Source of the DNA: a virus
Lineage: Duplodnaviria > Heunggongvirae > Uroviricota > Caudoviricetes
Direction: 5' to 3' (one strand)
Virus record (IMG/VR): IMGVR_UViG_2648501797_000004
Length of the DNA: 18,074 bases
Shown here: positions 1 through 14,767 of the stretch, one piece after another
How the letters are laid out: each line of letters begins with the position of its first letter
Position numbering within the stretch: position 1 is the first letter of the stretch
The notes under the pieces: generated by a model
Told to the model about the DNA's origin: nothing
Database searches by the model: none
Seen by the model: only the letters and a program-made list of their open reading frames with translations
Program-made: the position numbers and the translations under genes

Positions 1-19
1 CTATTTGATAAATATTAAA

Positions 20-1300
20 TTAATTTTTCATTGCTTCGTTATGGGGCATGGTTGGGGCAAACTCGCTTAACTGTGTATTTAACAAAGCTACCTGTGCATT
101 ATTGTTTTCAGACATCCATTTTCCGTATACCTGAAATACCATTTGCGCATCTGCATGGCCCATCTGGTTTGCTATAAATGCCGGGTTAGCACCAGCTGTC
201 AGCGACCAGCAGGCATAAGTATGTCTCGACTGATATGATTTTCGATGGCGGAGTCCGGCACGTTTTATCGCTGCGTCCCACATCTGCCTTATTGAGTCAA
301 CGGTAAAATGGTCACCATAATTTTTTACTCTCGCTGACACTTCAGGTTGAAAAACAAAGGTGCATTTTTGTTTTTCTGTTCTGCCATACTCTCTGAGGTG
401 AACATCAATGATATGCTCTTTGCTCAGTCTCGTTAATGTCATCTGACTCCGGAGAGCGTCGATTGCTGGCTTAATAAGATGAATGACCCGATTGGTTCCC
501 GCCTGTGTTTTTGGTACCGTGAAACGGTCTTTTGCTAAATTTCTCCTGATCATCATTGTTCCATTTTTCAGATCTATGTCCTCCCATCCAAGTGCACACA
601 GCTCACCAGGGCGAACGCCAGTATAAACAGAAACACACCATAAATTTTTTGCTTGCTGATTTCTGCACGCATCGATAAGACGGATAAATTCCTCCCGCGA
701 AAGAGGATCCGGAATGGTTCTTGATTCCTTTAATGGCGAGATCCCCTTAAACGGATTATCTGCCAGGTAACCGTTATCAACACCAAACTGGAACACGGCG
801 TTAAGATTTGTCATGTAATTATTTACAGTTACAGCCGATCTCCCTGGTTGTGTAACAATATAGTTACTTTTGGGGATCTGGTATCCAGTCAGTAGCTCTT
901 TACGAACCTCCAGTAATTTTTCTTTATTAATCGATGAGGCAAGATTTTTTTCACCGATTATGCTCAGGATATTTTTGATGACGGCACGGTATGTGTTGAG
1001 TGATGTTTTGGCGACTTCAGTTTCTTTCAGTGCCAGAAATTTTTCAGCCAGTTCTTTTATGGTTAAATCTTGTCGGGCCTCACCAAATTTTTCCAGATTG
1101 CGTGAGGAGGGAAACTGTTTTGCATAGTCGAAAACACCAGTTTTTATTGCGTAACAAACAGAGGAGCGTAGTTCACCTGCAACGCGCCTGTTTTTTGCTG
1201 TGTCAGGAACCCCCAGATTTTCCCTGACTCTTACGCCTTTATAAACAAACCAGATACGTAATTTCCCTCCATGGTTTTCCACGCCTGTCGGATATTTCAT
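20..1300 (-). CDS. Tyrosine recombinase / phage integrase (lambda Int-like); ORF is open to 1315 but the ATG at 1300 (MKYPTGV...) has the better SD
   Basis: 431-aa ORF with a C-terminal catalytic region of tyrosine-recombinase type (TGVRPGEL, SRHTYACW, VFQVYGKW matching the R, H-x-x-R and Y positions) and an N-terminal arm-type domain; sits next to an excisionase-like gene. Confidence 0.85.
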   Translation of the reverse strand: MKYPTGVENHGGKLRIWFVYKGVRVRENLGVPDTAKNRRVAGELRSSVCYAIKTGVFDYAKQFPSSRNLEKFGEARQDLTIKELAEKFLALKETEVAKTSLNTYRAVIKNILSIIGEKNLASSINKEKLLEVRKELLTGYQIPKSNYIVTQPGRSAVTVNNYMTNLNAVFQFGVDNGYLADNPFKGISPLKESRTIPDPLSREEFIRLIDACRNQQAKNLWCVSVYTGVRPGELCALGWEDIDLKNGTMMIRRNLAKDRFTVPKTQAGTNRVIHLIKPAIDALRSQMTLTRLSKEHIIDVHLREYGRTEKQKCTFVFQPEVSARVKNYGDHFTVDSIRQMWDAAIKRAGLRHRKSYQSRHTYACWSLTAGANPAFIANQMGHADAQMVFQVYGKWMSENNNAQVALLNTQLSEFAPTMPHNEAMKN

Positions 1301-1334
1301 TTCAACTTCTCTCATTAGTTAGTGTGGCTTTTAG

Positions 1335-1586
1335 TCAAGTAAGATGACGTCTTGGTCTCGCTGATGCCTGGCGCTCAATCCAGCGATCAATTTCTTCCAG
1401 GTTGTAAAAGCATGGACTGTTATCCCATGGCATACCGTCATGAGCGACATGCTTATATTCCCTTCCTTCCATAAACGATTTTTCCCGGGCCTTTTTTAAC
1501 GTACCTTTTTTTATTCCTTTCAGCGCAATTAACTGCTCTTCGGATACCCATTTGCCGGGAGAGACAATCATGATTACTTCGCTCAT
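1335..1586 (-). CDS. Excisionase-like small DNA-binding protein (Xis)
   Basis: 83-aa ORF immediately upstream of int on the same strand; basic; contains a GREY motif like the lambda Xis DGREYLF region. Start codon uncertain (MSEV at 1586 or MIV at 1571). Confidence 0.55.
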   Translation of the reverse strand: MSEVIMIVSPGKWVSEEQLIALKGIKKGTLKKAREKSFMEGREYKHVAHDGMPWDNSPCFYNLEEIDRWIERQASARPRRHLT

Positions 1587-1658
1587 CGATTTCTTTATCT
1601 CTTACATCAGACGAGCGCCGGTTGCAGAATACCAGTCACAACCGGCGACAGTTGAACA

Positions 1659-4130
1659 TTAAGAATCAGCCTGACTCGGGATCAGTTTTTGCCAGATAAC
1701 TGAAACGTATTTTGCCTGGTAACGGGCGTCATCAAGTGCATTATGGCGCTCACCTTCGAATGGAATAGCCGTTCTGGCATCGAAGTCTATGGCTTTCCCC
1801 AGCTCAACGATTGTGCGTACATCGCGATCGTTGTAGTAACGCCACGGGCAGGGGATCCCCTGCCGTTCGTATGAACGGCGCAAAATCGTGTTGTCGAAGT
1901 TGGCTCCATTTCCCCAAACCTGAACAAAAAATTCACCGGAGTTTTCGTCGATAAATTCCCGCAATTGTAACAGTGCATCATCTAACGGGATTTCATCGGT
2001 CATAATGGCAGATTGCGCTTCGCGTGATTGCTTAAGCCACCATTTAATGGTGTCCCGATCAATGACTCCGCCAGCAGTTTCCAGATCGATAGTCTTACTA
2101 AATTCCGGTCCCATATCTCCGGTTTGCGGATCGAAAAATATTGCACCTATTGAGATGATCGGGGCATCAGGATTTTTTCCCATGGTTTCAAGGTCGATCA
2201 TTAGATGGTCACACGTCCTGCTGGTGGATGTGATTTCGTGATGACCGTTCACCTTAATTGGGTGATCTGCCGTCTCGCCAGTTTCATTATCGCTATTGTG
2301 ATGCTGATTGCCGCCAGTGTTCTCCTTGTGTGGATGTTCAGCGCCTTCCATTTCCTCCGGATCATCTTCCTGAACTTCAACCTGATACTCTTCATCGAAT
2401 GTTTCTTGGTATGTTGCGTCGCCCATCACCGCGCCACAATCAGGGCAGTTGCCGCCGCCGGTCTGACCGCAGGCGGTGCAGGCTTTTTCCACTTCCTGTT
2501 GCGCCACTGGTTCAGGCTGTTTCGTTTCTGGCTCGTTTTGTAACGCATTTGGACTGTTTTGTTCCGCTTTTTGGTAGTTCCGTTCCGATTCATGCTGGTT
2601 CTGGTTCACAGAATCGCGGGTCTGGATCCCCTTAACCCATTTCGGATCATTCGGGTCACTAATCCCTTCAACAAATTCACCACGTGATGCAGCAAGCAAC
2701 TTATCGGCGTCAGGCTGGCTGATATTGGCTGCCTGCATAATTTTGTTTACTTCGTCAGCGGTAACTTTTATCGGCTCTGGTTGTTCTGAATCTTCAGCGG
2801 TATCTACATTTTGCGGTAAGCCCGTGTATGTGCCATTTTTTCGGGCAAAATATTCTTCTTTTGTGATTTCAGTGGCGCCAGCAGCCAGTGCCTTATCCAG
2901 ACCAGAAAGTTTGTTTGCGCGACCGTATTTTTCTCCGTCCTTATCTGCGAAGAGGAAATAGAACGGCCCCTCACGCTCTACAGATGGTTCAGCTTCCGGC
3001 GCGGTTTCATTTTTTGGGATATCAGATACCTCAGTTTCCACTGCATCAGTTTGTGTTTCTGATGACTGGAGAACATCAACAGTGCCCAGGTCTGTTTCTT
3101 CATTCTCAAACACGCCCTTTGTCGTCAGGTATTCGCAGATATATTTGTTCAGTGCTACGGGATCTTTGTGAATGTCGATCGGACGCTCACGGACAAGGCC
3201 AAAAATAGTTTGGCGGTCGTAGCGAAGGGCATCAGGCTGTTTGCGCATTGATGCCGAGATACGCTTCCAGTCTTCGCGGTCGTTGTCGATAACTTCTTTT
3301 TTTGCCCAGCGATGGATGCTGCCGTCAATGTTTCCGGCATCCACATCACCAGGCCAGAGAGCGTAGGCCAGTTCGTCATCCAGTGTTTTCCATGTCTGCT
3401 TGTATTCGCGATGAATGGCAGCAATGACCGGGCTGATTTTTCCTGTTGAATTTTCAGTGTACTGTTGATTGGCTCTGGCGCGGGCGAGATCAACAACAGA
3501 CGTGTATTTTCCGGTTTCCTTGCGTTCACCTTCGCGACGTTTTTTCCAGATGCGCATCTCTGCCTGAATTTCGGGCCATTTAGCACCAGGAATACATTTA
3601 TGCTTAACCCACCCAATGGCGTGCAACTTAAGCTCCGGATACATGGCGTTAACTTCTGGCATTTTCATCAACGCTTCAACGATATGTCCGTCGAATGTTG
3701 CCATGTCTTCCTGCAACAATTCCTGTGCGCTAATAACCATATCAACGGTGATGTTTTCACATGTGTCGAACTTAACCATGACAGCGTTCTGTACTTCAGG
3801 GGCCAGCTTGTCAAAAGTGACGTTCATCGGATCGGATTCAGTCTCAACCGGGACAAAAGAAGCAGACTCCTCATCCCAGCGGTTTTCCTGCATATATTCA
3901 GCATCCCATGAATCGAGGGCAGGGCGGGGTATGCCAGGTTTATCCTCGCAGACAATAAATTTATAAGCGCAGTCCTGAGCAGCCGGATAATGTTCCAGGA
4001 ACTGCCAGTGAAATTTTGCTCGAGCACGGCGTTCGTCGCCAGCTTCAATGGCTGTGGCTACAGCCACAGCGCCTTCTTCCCTTGTTGCCAGTTCGTCAGG
4101 AATAGCGGCGCAAATAAAGACTTTACTCAT
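1659..4130 (-). CDS. Large modular accessory protein with C-terminal DnaQ-like DEDDh 3'-5' exonuclease domain (domain about nt 1662..2216); N-terminal ~300 aa of unknown function, acidic low-complexity linker, CxxC...CxxC zinc ribbon
   Basis: 823-aa ORF with an SD (GAGG) before the ATG at 4130. The C-terminal ~185 aa carry Exo I (MIDLETMG), Exo II (WGNGANFD) and Exo III (H-NALD-D) motifs. A CTACGQTGGGNCPDCG zinc-ribbon motif lies mid-protein, followed by a long D/E/Q-rich region. Confidence 0.75.
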   Translation of the reverse strand: MSKVFICAAIPDELATREEGAVAVATAIEAGDERRARAKFHWQFLEHYPAAQDCAYKFIVCEDKPGIPRPALDSWDAEYMQENRWDEESASFVPVETESDPMNVTFDKLAPEVQNAVMVKFDTCENITVDMVISAQELLQEDMATFDGHIVEALMKMPEVNAMYPELKLHAIGWVKHKCIPGAKWPEIQAEMRIWKKRREGERKETGKYTSVVDLARARANQQYTENSTGKISPVIAAIHREYKQTWKTLDDELAYALWPGDVDAGNIDGSIHRWAKKEVIDNDREDWKRISASMRKQPDALRYDRQTIFGLVRERPIDIHKDPVALNKYICEYLTTKGVFENEETDLGTVDVLQSSETQTDAVETEVSDIPKNETAPEAEPSVEREGPFYFLFADKDGEKYGRANKLSGLDKALAAGATEITKEEYFARKNGTYTGLPQNVDTAEDSEQPEPIKVTADEVNKIMQAANISQPDADKLLAASRGEFVEGISDPNDPKWVKGIQTRDSVNQNQHESERNYQKAEQNSPNALQNEPETKQPEPVAQQEVEKACTACGQTGGGNCPDCGAVMGDATYQETFDEEYQVEVQEDDPEEMEGAEHPHKENTGGNQHHNSDNETGETADHPIKVNGHHEITSTSRTCDHLMIDLETMGKNPDAPIISIGAIFFDPQTGDMGPEFSKTIDLETAGGVIDRDTIKWWLKQSREAQSAIMTDEIPLDDALLQLREFIDENSGEFFVQVWGNGANFDNTILRRSYERQGIPCPWRYYNDRDVRTIVELGKAIDFDARTAIPFEGERHNALDDARYQAKYVSVIWQKLIPSQADS

Positions 4131-4223
4131 TTTGTTTTAACCTCATGACAGATTTAAGGATGAACAAATCCCTGCCATTGCTGGCATATAAGAATGAAAC
4201 CGGATATTTATTACGGAACTGTT

Positions 4224-4415
4224 TTAAAGACCTGCCGGGATTTCGATATTATCCTGGTGAATAACTTTATCGACCGGGTAACAGTTACCGGGAATTTTCT
4301 GTTCGGTTGCTGCAGTCATACACTCCTGCATTGTCCTGTGAACACTGACTGCAATATCAACTGGCACTCCGGAAACAAGAAAAACTGTCAGAACAAGCGC
4401 AAATGCTGAATTCAT
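4224..4415 (-). CDS. Small hypothetical membrane/secreted protein (63 aa) with hydrophobic N-terminus
   Basis: ATG with AGGA SD; start overlaps the stop of the upstream small ORF in an ATGA arrangement (translational coupling). N-terminal stretch AFALVLTVFLVSGVPVDIAVSV is signal-peptide or TM-like. An alternative plus-strand ORF, 4194..4409, overlaps it. Confidence 0.4.
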   Translation of the reverse strand: MNSAFALVLTVFLVSGVPVDIAVSVHRTMQECMTAATEQKIPGNCYPVDKVIHQDNIEIPAGL

Positions 4416-4600
4416 TGTGCACATCCTTTTGGCATCAGACGTAAACGAGCCAGCATTGAAACAATGCATATTTTATTTAATAGCTCCCGTTCTTGTTTTC
4501 TCTTGTTAATGGCATCTTCAGTAAATACAGGGTTACTGATAGTGACACCAATTTCAAAACAACCTTCAGACGTATTAACGTTTGGTAATAACGTTTTCAT
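4412..4600 (-). CDS. Small hypothetical protein (62 aa), first gene of a coupled pair
   Basis: ATG at complement of 4598-4600 preceded by a GAGGA SD; its stop overlaps the start of the next ORF (ATGA). No recognisable family. Confidence 0.4.
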   Translation of the reverse strand: MKTLLPNVNTSEGCFEIGVTISNPVFTEDAINKRKQERELLNKICIVSMLARLRLMPKGCAQ

Positions 4601-4652
4601 TATCGCGTCCTCAACAATGAATTTTGTGATGCAGTGCCTGGTGCCTCCAGGT

Positions 4653-4679
4653 GACGTTAACCAGTTAACAATTAACGTC
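4653..4679. promoter_or_regulatory. Perfect 8-bp inverted repeat GACGTTAA-N11-TTAACGTC (operator-like) in the divergent intergenic region
   Basis: Palindrome read directly from the sequence; it also contains three TTAAC repeats, and sits between the minus-strand small-gene operon and the plus-strand Q-side genes. Confidence 0.3.
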
Positions 4680-4743
4680 GGATACACTACCTGAGGCTGT
4701 ATCGCGTCGTTCGCTGGGATTACCAGCGGAAAAAATCTGCTCG

Positions 4744-5202
4744 GTGTACCGCGAAAGCGACATCGTACCGGGAGAGCAGACCGCCACCAGCATATTGAAA
4801 CAACGCACAAAAAATCTTGCACCGTTGCCTTACGCCCACCAGCAACAAAAATCACCACAGGAAAAGACGGTGGTAAGCATCACCGTTGATCCAGAGTCTC
4901 CGGAATCTTTCATGAAGCTGCCTAAACGTCGCCGCTGGGTTAAGGAGAAATACACACGTTGGGTTAAGACACAGCCGTGTGCTTGCTGCGGTATGCCAGC
5001 CGACGATCCGCATCATCTGATTGGTCACGGGCAGGGCGGAATGGGAACAAAAGCACATGATCTCTTTGTGTTGCCTTTGTGCAGAAAGCATCACAACGAG
5101 CTGCATACGGATACAGTGGCATTTGAAGATAAGTATGGCTCCCAACTGGAGCTGATATTTCGTTTTATCGATCGCGCGCTGGCAATTGGCGTACTGGCGT
5201 AA
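4744..5202 (+). CDS. Cys/His-rich zinc-binding nuclease-like protein (YbcO/DUF1364- or DUF968-like fold); probable functional start at the ATG at 4912 (96 aa); may be the C-terminal remnant of a longer ydfU-like gene
   Basis: Motif C-x-C-C-G...HHLIGHG...GMGTKAHD...C-x-x-HH-x-E-L-H resembles small phage nin-region nucleases; lies directly upstream of Q. The ORF track start at 4744 is a GTG. Confidence 0.5.
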   Translation: MYRESDIVPGEQTATSILKQRTKNLAPLPYAHQQQKSPQEKTVVSITVDPESPESFMKLPKRRRWVKEKYTRWVKTQPCACCGMPADDPHHLIGHGQGGMGTKAHDLFVLPLCRKHHNELHTDTVAFEDKYGSQLELIFRFIDRALAIGVLA

Positions 5203-5215
5203 GTGGAGAACGAGC

Positions 5216-5968
5216 ATGAACCTTGAAGCCTTACCAAAATATTACTCCCCAAAATCTCCAAAATTGAGCGATGACGCTCCAGCGACAGGCACCGGTTGTT
5301 TAACAATTACGGATGTAATGGCAGCGCAGGGGATGGTGCAGTCGAAAGCACCACTTGGGTTGGCCTTATTTCTGGCAAAAGTTGGTGTTCAGGACCCTCA
5401 GTTTGCGATTGAAGGCCTGCTAAATTACGCGATGGCACTGGATAACCCGACATTGAACAAATTGAGTGAAGAAATCCGGTTACAGATTATTCCTTACCTC
5501 GTGAGTTTTGCCTTTGCTGATTACTCCAGGTCTGCGGCAAGTAAGGCTCGCTGTGAGCATTGTTCAGGTACGGGATTTTATAATGTATTGCGCGAAGTGG
5601 TGAAACACTACAGACGCGGGGAATCTGTAATCAAGGAAGAATGGGTGAAGGAACTATGTCAGCATTGCCATGGTAAGGGCGAAGCCAGCACAGCGTGCAG
5701 AGGGTGTAAGGGTAAAGGGATTGTTCTGGATGAAAAAAGAACCCGGTTTCATGGCGTACCGGTATATAAGATTTGTGGGCGTTGTAATGGAAACCGGTTT
5801 AGTCGTTTACCGACCACGCTGGCACGACGTCATGTCCAGAAGCTGGTACCAGACCTGACCGATTATCAGTGGTATAAGGGGTATGCGGACGTCATTGGTA
5901 AACTGGTAACAAAGTGCTGGCAGGAAGAAGCATACGCGGAAGCGCAATTGAGGAAGGTGACGAGATAA
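5216..5968 (+). CDS. quuQ: Late-gene antitermination protein Q (phage 21/82-type)
   Basis: 250-aa product from an ATG with a GGAGAA SD; Cys-rich zinc-finger region (CEHCSGTG...CQHCHGKG...CRGCKGKG); position immediately upstream of a strong promoter plus terminator and the lysis genes. Confidence 0.8.
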   Translation: MNLEALPKYYSPKSPKLSDDAPATGTGCLTITDVMAAQGMVQSKAPLGLALFLAKVGVQDPQFAIEGLLNYAMALDNPTLNKLSEEIRLQIIPYLVSFAFADYSRSAASKARCEHCSGTGFYNVLREVVKHYRRGESVIKEEWVKELCQHCHGKGEASTACRGCKGKGIVLDEKRTRFHGVPVYKICGRCNGNRFSRLPTTLARRHVQKLVPDLTDYQWYKGYADVIGKLVTKCWQEEAYAEAQLRKVTR

Positions 5969-6073: not shown

Positions 6074-6105
6074 AAAACCCGCTGATGAGCGGGTTTTGTG
6101 CTTTA
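6074..6105 (+). terminator. Intrinsic terminator (tR'-like); also usable on the minus strand
   Basis: 9-bp stem AAAACCCGC / GCGGGTTTT with loop TGATGA, followed by a T-rich tract on the plus strand; the minus strand also has a U-rich tract after the hairpin. Confidence 0.6.
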
Positions 6106-6602: not shown

Positions 6603-6902
6603 AAAAATTCCTTAATACTGATAACTTGGCGCACTATACACACGTTCCTGAAGAAAGCTATAGTTTTTTGATGGGGTTGAAGACGGCTGGATGTCTAAAA
6701 TAAACATTGCTTCATATGTTCAACTATGCGTTAATGATTGCGTCGGTTTGAAGAACAGACGATATACGAAGTAGTTTACTAAAGCAGTTCTCATTTCAGG
6801 TGTTATTCACTTATTCCTTCTTTGAGTCTCTCCAATTAAGTACGAAGTCGTTTCTGTTATGCAAACCATTTATGCCGAAAGGCTCAAGTTAAGGAATGTA
6901 GA

Positions 6903-7118
6903 ATGTCAAATAAAATGACTGGTTTAGTAAAATGGTTTAACGCTGATAAAGGTTTCGGCTTTATTTCTCCTGTTGATGGTAGTAAAGATGTGTTTGTGCA
7001 TTTTTCTGCGATTCAGAATGATAATTATCGAACCTTATTTGAAGGTCAAAAGGTTACCTTCTCTATAGAGAGTGGTGCTAAAGGTCCTGCAGCAGCAAAT
7101 GTCATCATTACTGATTAA
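6903..7118 (+). CDS. cspB: Cold-shock protein CspB
   Basis: 71-aa CspA-family ORF with RNP1/RNP2-like motifs (KGFGFI, VFVHF); long AT-rich leader upstream. Confidence 0.85.
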
Positions 7119-7399
7119 AATTCATCGCTCGTCTGTATACGATAACGAAGAAGGCTGATGCCTGAGTAGAGATACGGACAGAGTAGTGAATATTGGATCT
7201 CTTTAATAAAAAGTAAGGAGGTCCAATACATGAAACAATGGCTAGCATATTTGGCAAAATCTTAATCAGGAAAAGTATGCTAACCATTGTGGTGAAGTGC
7301 AGGTTTGCTGCATGAATAGTTTTACAGCAGAAGCTAACTGCTGGCATGGCAAAACAAAGTGCGTAAGTGGATGACTCCCACAAAAAGCACCACAATCTC

Positions 7400-7426
7400 A
7401 AACCCGCTCAGGCGGGTTTTTTATTA
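7400..7426 (+). terminator. Intrinsic terminator about 290 nt downstream of cspB
   Basis: 8-bp stem AAACCCGC / GCGGGTTT with loop TCAG followed by TTTTATTAT; the stem sequence is nearly identical to the terminator at 6074..6105. Confidence 0.6.
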
Positions 7427-7481
7427 TCTGCTTTAAATATATTATTAAAATATAAAAAATACTTGTTACTAATAAAATCAA

Positions 7482-7652
7482 TCAGGCTACAGCTTTAAGA
7501 TTTGTCTGGAATACTTTGTTGCAATGAGGGCAGATCAAAAGGGCACCTTTTTGTACTCTTGAAAAACTGTGTTCTGACTCTTGGGTGCAGTTTGGGCAGG
7601 AACATTTAACGAGATAATTACGGCGTGATTTTGAGTTTTTACGTTCTGACAT
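7482..7652 (-). CDS. ynfU: Small zinc-ribbon protein (56 aa; CPNC...CPHC), YnfU-like
   Basis: ATG preceded by an AGGAAAA SD; two CxxC pairs; basic N-terminus. The gene symbol is tentative, from recall of Qin small proteins. Confidence 0.5.
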   Translation of the reverse strand: MSERKNSKSRRNYLVKCSCPNCTQESEHSFSRVQKGALLICPHCNKVFQTNLKAVA

Positions 7653-7871
7653 AGGCTTTTCCTGTATAAATGGCCGTATACAGTACACTAAATATGAAAA
7701 CATTTCTCGTATTATTATTTTATATATGACTTTCTTTCAAAATAATTACCCACATTTTTAATGTGTATGTTTTTTTAGCGCCGTTGAGAACAACGTGTGC
7801 TGTCAAAACTACCCCGTAGACTCCGATCTTTTCAAACATATTGCACCATCCGTGTACATCGGGGTGAGGAT

Positions 7872-9489: not shown

Positions 9490-9852
9490 ATTAATATTAA
9501 ATCGGATTATTTTTAGCGCTGAATGTGAAATTTAAATAAAAAGGACTCTTCCATGAGTCAAAATCCTTGAAATCTTAAGGGTAAGATAAAAGGTCATTAG
9601 ACAGAATGACACGTTTTATTAATAAATAAAGCTATTGTTTCATTCGTGTGTTTTTCTTTACAAAAGTAATCCTTGCTATGGTTGGTTAATCATGCGTTAA
9701 TGGTGTTCTGGTTTGTTACAAAATTATCTGAAGCAGTCATTGTTATAATTTTATTATTTGTACCTCTTGAGATTTCCTTGTTGGTTTTTCTCTCTGATAT
9801 TTTTTTTCGGACCATTCTGCCCAAGGGCTAACTTCTTCAAAAGGTAATAATA

Positions 9853-10065
9853 ATGTCTAACAAAATGACTGGTTTAGTGAAATGGTTTAACCCTGAAAAA
9901 GGTTTTGGTTTCATCACGCCGAAAGATGGTAGCAAAGATGTGTTTGTGCATTTCTCAGCTATTCAGAGCAACGATTTCAAAACGTTAACTGAGAATCAGG
10001 AAGTCGAATTTGGTATTGAGAACGGACCTAAAGGCCCTGCAGCTGTTCATGTAGTGGCACTTTGA
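9853..10065 (+). CDS. cspI: Cold-shock protein CspI
   Basis: 70-aa CspA-family ORF ([34 protein letters not shown]...); long AT-rich leader of about 360 bp upstream. Confidence 0.85.
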
Positions 10066-10267
10066 GGTAGAAAATATTACAAACCATATTCACTTTAGAT
10101 GCCCGTGTTGCCATGGTTCTCAGTATAGAACATCATCTTTTGATGTTTCTGACAGAAATCCTTTCGGGGCAAAATGTATCTTTTGTAAATCAATGATGAT
10201 TACATTTGATAATATTTCACAATACTTAAATGTTAGCCATCTGTCGTTAGATTTAAGAAAGTGAAAA

Positions 10268-14192: not shown

Positions 14193-14767
14193 TGGCATTC
14201 AGAATGAGTGAACAACCACGGACCATAAAAATTTATAATCTGCTGGCCGGAACTAATGAATTTATTGGTGAAGGTGATGCATATATTCCGCCTCATACAG
14301 GTCTGCCAGCAAACAGTACCGATATTGCACCGCCAGATATTCCGGCAGGCTTCGTGGCTGTTTTCAACAGTGATGAGTCATCGTGGCATCTCGTTGAAGA
14401 TCATCGGGGTAAAACGGTTTATGACGTGGCTTCCGGCGACGCGTTATTTATTTCTGAACTCGGTCCGTTACCGGAAAATGTTACCTGGTTATCGCCGGAA
14501 GGAGAGTTTCAGAAGTGGAACGGCACAGCCTGGGTGAAGGATACGGAAGCAGAAAAACTGTTCCGGATCCGGGAGGCGGAAGAAATAAAAAACAACCTGA
14601 TGCAGGTAGCCAGTGAGCATATTGCGCCGCTTCAGGATGCTGCAGATCTGGAAATTGCAACGGAGGAAGAAATCTCGTTGCTGGAAGCATGGAAAAAGTA
14701 TCGGGTATTGCTGAACCGTGTTGATACGTCAACTTCACAGGATATTGAATGGCCAGCACTGCCGTAG
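14192..14767 (+). CDS. tfaQ: Tail fibre assembly protein (Tfa)
   Basis: 191-aa ORF whose start overlaps the stop of the fibre fragment (TAATG); Tfa-like sequence and position after stf. Confidence 0.8.

Follow-up and report, generated by a model that had tools for sequence, protein, structure and literature searches.

The window analyzed here (IMG/VR record IMGVR_UViG_2648501797_000004; the whole stretch of 18,074 nucleotides [nt] from a tailed virus) was an Escherichia coli Qin-type lambdoid prophage, and our subject is the region at 7119-7426 that follows its cold-shock gene cspB. Positions 6850-7750 were 100% identical to K-12 MG1655, where a K-12 coordinate (NC_000913.3) equals 1648457 minus the window coordinate, anchored on cspB at 1641339-1641554 of the minus strand. 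RefSeq annotates cspB and the convergent gene ynfU at this K-12 locus, and nothing in between. An earlier reading of the sequence alone (the original prediction) had placed two small open reading frames (ORFs) in this interval, the first behind a near-perfect Shine-Dalgarno sequence (SD), and had proposed a small protein, a regulatory leader peptide or a 3' untranslated region (UTR) resembling a small RNA (sRNA). We found that 7119-7426 is a conserved structured RNA supported by covariation. On balance we think it probable that this RNA is the structured 3' untranslated tail of the cspB mRNA, governing the fate of the message, and that the micro-ORFs within it are accidental. The features of the region were as follows:

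6903-7118, plus strand: cspB coding sequence (ORF list; RefSeq annotation of the identical K-12 sequence)
7131-7179, plus strand: hairpin A, with an outer 9-bp stem (7131-7139/7171-7179) and a small inner hairpin (7153-7155/7160-7162)
7191-7228, plus strand: hairpin B, a 15-bp stem-loop with no U tract (-18.3 kcal/mol, z -6.3; none of 200 shuffles was as stable)
7231 and 7233, plus strand (K-12 1641226 and 1641224, minus strand): dominant RNA 3' ends (Term-seq, Adams et al. 2021, PMC7815308)
7230-7265, plus strand: micro-ORF1, MKQWLAYLAKS, overlapping the linker and the 5' strand of helix P1; judged incidental
7233-7397, plus strand: core domain of ~165 nt, comprising P1, P2 and three hairpins (RNAalifold and manual reading)
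7235-7251/7274-7290, plus strand: P1, the long helix of the core domain
7277-7315, plus strand: micro-ORF2, MLTIVVKCRFAA, covering the 3' strand of P1, the 5' strand of P2 and all of HP1; judged incidental
7291-7294/7388-7391, plus strand: P2, closing the junction that carries the three hairpins
7297-7302/7308-7313, plus strand: HP1, core-domain hairpin
7325-7330/7338-7343, plus strand: HP2, core-domain hairpin with the near-invariant loop AAGCUAA (7331-7337)
7356-7367, plus strand: near-invariant unpaired motif AAAGUGCGUAAG
7367-7370/7378-7381, plus strand: HP3, core-domain hairpin
7400-7419, with a U run on the plus strand to 7426: intrinsic terminator hairpin (terminator scan), used by the convergent ynfU transcript

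The evidence for an RNA domain came from its base pairs. In a MAFFT alignment of 21 sequences, 96.5% of the cells in core-domain pairs were paired, and 12 of the 37 pairs had changed on both sides, compared to 4.5 in shuffled alignments (0 of 500 as high) and 0-4 when partners were slid out of register; every helix of the domain contributed such double changes. A repeat on 47 distinct sequences, including metagenomic ones, gave 13 doubly changed pairs versus 6.7 in shuffles (again 0 of 500). Many of the pairs are G-U, which are compatible with the cspB (plus) strand only. A covariance model scored 143 bits at the core domain, which was the sole copy in the window; the model found no second copy behind cspI or elsewhere in it. 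A tRNA or transfer-messenger RNA identity was considered and rejected, as ARAGORN reported 0 genes in the window and the four-way junction has long linkers.

One strand of the domain had two potential partners. The sequence GCACCAC (7387-7393) can form P2 with GGUG at 7291-7294, or an alternative helix, P2a, with GUGC at 7359-7362 within AAAGUGCGUAAG. Both helices were 100% paired across the 21 sequences, P2 with two compensated pairs, and the two states were predicted to be near-isoenergetic, with homologues differing in the state that they would favor. We also noted a tentative 4-bp pseudoknot between GUCU at 7319-7322, in the linker of HP1 and HP2, and the HP3 loop (7372-7375), which was 93% paired across the 21 sequences with nearly all changes one-sided. 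Between HP1 and HP2, three copies carried 2-7 tandem copies of an 8-nt unit (GAAAGCCT or GAAAGCAT), namely L140 from Raoultella lignicola (~4423-4625) and the metagenomic L222 and L190; the motif AGUGCGUAAG was degraded in two of these three.

At least 12 enterobacterial genera carry the domain, in prophages, in phage-plasmids or on chromosomes. The cspB 3' region was present in 1,713 of 5,426 complete E. coli genomes, with most E. coli copies at least 99% identical, and in six temperate Escherichia phages. Phage-plasmids of the SSU5-like type in Escherichia, Klebsiella and Citrobacter carried its 3' half (77-82% identity). A two-motif pattern search matched at least 120 viral contigs and, in a collection with one genome per species, 28 contigs from Escherichia, Shigella, Enterobacter, Kluyvera, Kosakonia, Phytobacter, Raoultella, Leclercia, Atlantibacter, Superficieibacter and Pseudescherichia. 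To control for circularity, the search was repeated on metagenome contigs with an anchor in P1, P2 and HP1; among the 51 genuine unique hits, the HP2 loop AAGCUAA was kept in 47 and AGUGCGUAAG in 49. A csp gene lay upstream on the same strand in 58 of 70 unique copies, its stop codon 153-220 nt before the motif, and of the remaining 12, ten had too little upstream sequence and two were disrupted by insertion sequences (IS). IS insertions were seen in a csp coding sequence (L025) and in helix P1 (L082, an IS3-family transposase end). Between lineages the element was 0.72-0.91 identical, in contrast to 0.41-0.54 at third codon positions of csp, a conservation comparable to that of the first and second codon positions of the same gene. 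In the phage Cyrano (OV696614), an SSU5-like phage-plasmid, the domain match is preceded by a cspB-like gene that the annotation lacks (L004 2630-2845). This gene has a 5' UTR of the cspA type and sits in an 'intergenic' gap of 850 nt that separates hicB from dnaE; in related E. coli plasmids the domain match is likewise listed under dnaE only.

Ahead of the core domain the tail folds into two hairpins (z = -6.9 for 7119-7233). The internal loop of hairpin A (ACGAAGAAGG ... CCUGAGUAGA) is rich in purines and conserved, and a K-turn or loop-E reading of it was considered by eye. Its fold as a single sequence was -15.4 kcal/mol (z -2.8), and 8 of its 9 outer pairs showed pair-keeping changes on both sides (RNAalifold, 14 homologues). 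The helix extends to 7120-7191 when 7119-7233 is folded, and the hairpin is missing from the short PHB10-type tails. Three lineages alone (Qin, Cyrano and Klebsiella plasmid) had a strong hairpin B; in the latter two an equally strong hairpin occupied the same place, and the sequences were unrelated between the lineages. Qin-type variants retained the stem, including one (AAGGAGAU) in which the SD is weaker and the stem better, a U.G pair having become U-A.

The published Term-seq data (Adams et al. 2021, PMC7815308) placed the dominant 3' ends of the cspB strand at 7231 and 7233. These positions are 3 and 5 nt past hairpin B and fall within the ATG of micro-ORF1 or directly behind it. Average counts were 604,404 (LB 0.4), 1,233,565 and 2,464,295, the latter two presumably from the LB 2.0 and M63 sheets. 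The register of the tables was verified on sgrS and on the ynfU end. A second 3' end in the same tables, within the cspB 5' UTR (K-12 1641634, window 6823), was about tenfold less abundant. For cspB, the Rho table of that study lists only a region at 1641537 (window 6920), the 5' end of the ORF. Together with the 5'-UTR end, this Rho-dependent region points to premature termination in cultures at 37°C. Precise ends just past stable stem-loops without a U tract have been attributed to Rho-dependent transcripts shielded from PNPase and RNase II (PMC6061677). Hairpin B belongs to this class of protective 3' stem-loops, being stable, lacking a U tract and having a precise steady-state 3' end directly downstream, an assignment that draws on the stem-loop and the end position and leaves its Rho and exonuclease origin putative. 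We therefore infer from its class, rather than from the mapped end itself, that hairpin B is a protective stem-loop that blocks exonucleases.

As we read it, the cspB tail would consist of three modules: hairpin A, hairpin B and the conserved ~165-nt domain. Hairpin B would stop 3'-to-5' exonucleases and so define the abundant steady-state end at 7231/7233. The core domain would be transcribed together with cspB; no plus-strand promoter-like site was found in 7100-7400 that could serve it on its own. At 37°C the domain would then be separated from the message or degraded, through cleavage or termination downstream of hairpin B. We suggest that the domain is a cis-acting element for the fate of csp mRNA, acting in 3'-end formation, decay or processing. 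Hypothetically, it might do so by switching the GCACCAC strand between P2 and P2a. Our best guess at its role is either cis-acting control or service as the precursor of a released RNA. A pairing of the core domain with the cspB 5' UTR was not apparent, as RNAduplex gave long and inconsistent duplexes at differing sites in five homologues.

Several points weigh against this reading. Because hairpin B is strong in only three lineages, a module that stabilizes the 3' end is not universal. The end at 7231/7233 may arise by an endonuclease, by Rho and trimming, or by another route, and the Term-seq and other expression data come from cultures at 37°C, not from cold shock. The changes that support P2a are all one-sided, and a switch between P2 and P2a is a hypothesis drawn from thermodynamic prediction. 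Rare read-through transcripts may allow some translation of the micro-ORFs. For the core domain, its structure, conservation and linkage to csp genes are observed features, while its role in mRNA fate is a best guess.

The domain and terminator together (~7234-7426, ~190 nt) may alternatively be cleaved off in the linker at 7229-7234 to become a trans-acting, 3'-UTR-derived sRNA with the invariant motifs as seeds, a possibility that we consider unlikely. It fits with the abundant upstream end just 2-4 nt before P1, with the AU-rich linker between two stable structures, and with the near-invariant unpaired motifs and strong conservation of the domain. The terminator that the original prediction had proposed behind cspB was evident by both terminator scan and fold (hairpin 7400-7419 followed by a T run; -12.8 kcal/mol, z -4.7), and an intrinsic terminator with a U run lay downstream in four lineages: Qin, Cyrano, Klebsiella plasmid and Superficieibacter. 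However, the terminator was absent from most lineages, in which the domain leads into a U-rich stretch or a 75-amino-acid (aa) ORF. The mRNA end expected at about 7426 was also not borne out in K-12, as the cspB-strand ends lay at 7231/7233 and no Term-seq sheet of the 37°C cultures had a minus-strand 3' end at K-12 16410xx, the position of the terminator (PMC7815308; the lowest minus-strand counts in the rows available were ~23,000). Convergent ynfU uses the same hairpin, with a plus-strand Term-seq 3' end at K-12 1641060 (window 7397). In the two of four cspB occurrences available from an sRNA table based on RIL-seq, the entries were cspF.cspB.IGR and the cspB coding sequence, and those passages gave neither an entry for the cspB 3' UTR nor an Hfq interaction record of it. 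The domain is moreover far larger and more branched than typical Hfq sRNAs. The original view of an sRNA-like 3' UTR stood insofar as the region is a conserved structured RNA, though the conserved parts differ from those to which it had pointed.

A more speculative idea, which we rate as quite improbable, is that the domain is a new class of bistable RNA switch at the 3' end of mobile cold-shock genes, with P2 and P2a toggled by temperature, by Csp load or by a ligand to decide whether the message is cleaved. The toggle would, on this hypothesis, set whether the message is cleaved beside hairpin B and stabilized, or degraded. A bolder hypothetical variant has the domain itself catalyzing or directing cleavage 2-4 nt upstream of P1. 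If true, the switch would be the 3'-UTR counterpart of the cspA 5' thermosensor.

Still less probable is that the domain acts as a leader or processing element for something downstream on the same strand, either the Qin late (lysis) transcript, which runs from pR' across the cspB cassette, or the 75-aa ORF of Enterobacter-type loci. The cspB cassette in the window is flanked by the Q antiterminator gene, with its tR'-like terminator, and by the holin gene; because a tR'-like terminator follows Q, the cspF-cspB-ynfU cassette can be read as a moron that comes after tR' and before the holin gene. The Q gene is the ORF at 5186-5968 and the tR'-like intrinsic terminator lies at 6076-6101, with a Term-seq 3' end at K-12 1642356 (window 6101). 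In Enterobacter, Leclercia, Pseudescherichia and a K. aerogenes plasmid, the 75-aa ORF begins ~60 nt past the domain with no terminator between them. However, the downstream neighbor changes across lineages, being convergent ynfU, convergent dnaE (in phage-plasmids) or the 75-aa ORF, and only the upstream csp gene is constant. This conserved ORF (MIKVLVFFNAE...SIRQEYPNGEE...) accompanies the cassette, lies on the same strand in some loci and had no Pfam match; examples are at L145 2291-2518, L136 4223-4450, L007 1106-1333 and L005 2957-3184.

Translation of one or both micro-ORFs, as small proteins or as regulatory leader peptides, appeared very unlikely. The elements on which the original prediction was built were mostly in place: cspB at 6903-7118, AAGGAGGT at 7215-7222 with 7 nt to the ATG at 7230, and micro-ORF1 at 7230-7265. 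A second 12-codon ORF also exists, at 7277-7315 rather than the one-base-shifted 7276-7314, and the AGGAAA ahead of it is present, though at a spacing of merely 3 nt from the ATG if taken as an SD. The perfect SD and its 7-nt spacing nevertheless proved unremarkable, contrary to the claim that they were improbable by chance. AGGAGG-N4-9-ATG occurred once in the window against 0.56 expected and at least once in 87 of 200 shuffles of the window, and AAGGAGGT with up to one mismatch occurred 7 times against 10.8 expected, under-represented if anything. This apparent SD lies in the 3' arm of hairpin B (7214-7228), the middle of which is AAGGAGGU, and is sequestered in the predicted -18.3 kcal/mol stem. 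As the dominant 3' ends lie in or directly behind its ATG, most cspB RNA in the Term-seq cultures would be without micro-ORF1. RiboReport had no entry for these coordinates, which speaks neither for nor against translation.

Neither micro-ORF was conserved as a coding sequence. In alignments of 5, 25 and 21 diverse copies, micro-ORF1 and its SD were confined to the E. coli Qin lineage and absent from all non-Qin homologues. Its alleles in the Qin type were MKQWLAYLAKS, MKQWPAYLAKS, MKQWPAYLAIT, MKQWPAYLAKP and MKQ*, and all five substitutions were non-synonymous or nonsense. The L/P difference among these alleles is a step in a compensatory series of P1 (C-G to C.A to U-A). The frame of micro-ORF2 was open with an ATG, GTG or TTG start in 45 of 47 sequences (GTG 21, TTG 14, ATG 10, another codon 2), and its stop was at the same place in 44. 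However, its start codon sits within P1 and most lineages have no SD for it. Its variable columns by codon position (8/5/5) lacked the third-position bias of csp genes at the same loci (18/15/51 and 21/18/65). The stop codon begins at the final base of HP1, and where the base change was checked in the lineages that had lost it (3 of 47 sequences), the change was U to C, which turns the closing G.U of HP1 into a stronger G-C. An ATG at 7238 opens the frame of micro-ORF2 further upstream (25 aa); since indels in the linkers of the domain are not multiples of three, no longer frame is possible within it. Attenuation by a leader peptide would need a same-strand gene downstream, and there was none in the window, the next gene there and in K-12 being the convergent ynfU. 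In favor of translation, the neighboring small proteins YnfU, YnfS and YnfR were found only recently. With the SD in a stem, the mRNA end inside the ATG and no coding conservation, the small-protein and leader-peptide proposals were left without support, and both micro-ORFs are most likely accidental readings of a sequence constrained by base pairing. A textbook SD and ATG can be merely one arm of a hairpin, which is a caution for small-ORF searches. A 97-aa ORF on the minus strand (7108-7401, hypothetical in phage PhiR42_1) was also rejected, with no Pfam match and open only in the Qin type; in most homologues the longest open stretch there was 38-64 aa.

Finally, that the conservation stems from recent horizontal spread of one cassette or from a site in the DNA, and entails no RNA function, is barely credible: the cassette is mobile (prophages, phage-plasmids, plasmids and IS insertions) and most of its E. 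coli copies are nearly uniform, but csp third positions have diverged well beyond the domain, compensatory changes occur in every helix and the G-U pairs are strand-specific.

Turning back to a tail that governs the fate of the cspB message, its parts can be compared with known systems. Hairpin B resembles the protective 3' stem-loops of Dar and Sorek (PMC6061677) in its stability, its lack of a U tract and the precise, abundant ends 3 and 5 nt downstream, but it is followed by a conserved structured domain instead of an unstructured C-rich rut site. The core domain is, like the cspA 5'-UTR thermosensor (RF01766), a structured RNA on cold-shock genes of the same family that would act in cis, and a thermosensor is also found upstream of cspB. 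It differs from the thermosensor in lying on the other side of the gene and in having no similarity to it in sequence or structure, and temperature sensing by the domain is only a hypothesis. The Rfam match to RF01766 at cspB (6742-7134, 158.8 bits) spans the 5' UTR and coding sequence only, ending 16 nt past the stop codon. A second match, at 9706-10111 ahead of cspI, scored 110.6 bits.

CpxQ and SdhX are examples of Hfq sRNAs derived from 3' UTRs. Their likeness to the cspB segment is that a conserved part of a 3' UTR reaches, in some lineages, as far as the intrinsic terminator of the mRNA and has a single-stranded AU-rich linker upstream as its likely cleavage site; in contrast, the cspB segment is ~190 nt long and multi-branched, its terminator is not conserved and Term-seq had no end there. 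As in leader attenuators of the trpL type, tiny ORFs lie over alternative hairpins ahead of a terminator, and there was a weak Trp_leader match at 7341-7425, but the region has no runs of regulatory codons, no same-strand downstream gene and no ORFs conserved as coding. Trp_leader (21.7 bits, gathering 41) and Leu_leader (12.6 bits, gathering 50) were both far below threshold. Hairpin 7400-7419 resembles bidirectional terminators between convergent genes in that it serves ynfU on the opposite strand (end 7397), and differs from them in that published data have no detectable end at it on the cspB strand.

No family in Rfam 15 reached its gathering score in 7135-7500, with the best sub-threshold matches at or below 22.5 bits and driven by the terminator, and a full-text literature search found no description of an element or sRNA in the cspB 3' UTR. 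We therefore treat the domain as an undescribed conserved structured RNA motif of bacteria. In the parts of the literature available, published work on cspB regulation concerned the 5' UTR and premature Rho termination (e.g., PMC7815308).

Elsewhere in the window, Rfam matched IS009 at 14535-14733 (219 bits). Positions 1-5200, upstream of the Q region, were not collinear with K-12 and held minus-strand ORFs of 431 aa (20-1315, intact-looking) and 823 aa (1659-4130). Among records that matched the whole window, features under the match included a site-specific integrase and an exonuclease; strain Ecol_AZ147 was the only record to match it throughout at 100%, in three pieces.

We regard the finding of micro-ORFs as ordinary and the RNA that underlies them as moderately interesting. 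Few genes of E. coli K-12 are induced by cold as strongly as cspB, and studies of how it is regulated have centered on the 5' UTR. The 3' tail of the gene exceeds the coding sequence in length, has several domains and matches codon positions one and two of the protein in conservation. The tail is thus a testable candidate for post-transcriptional control of a cold-shock gene from its 3' end, in the best-studied bacterium.

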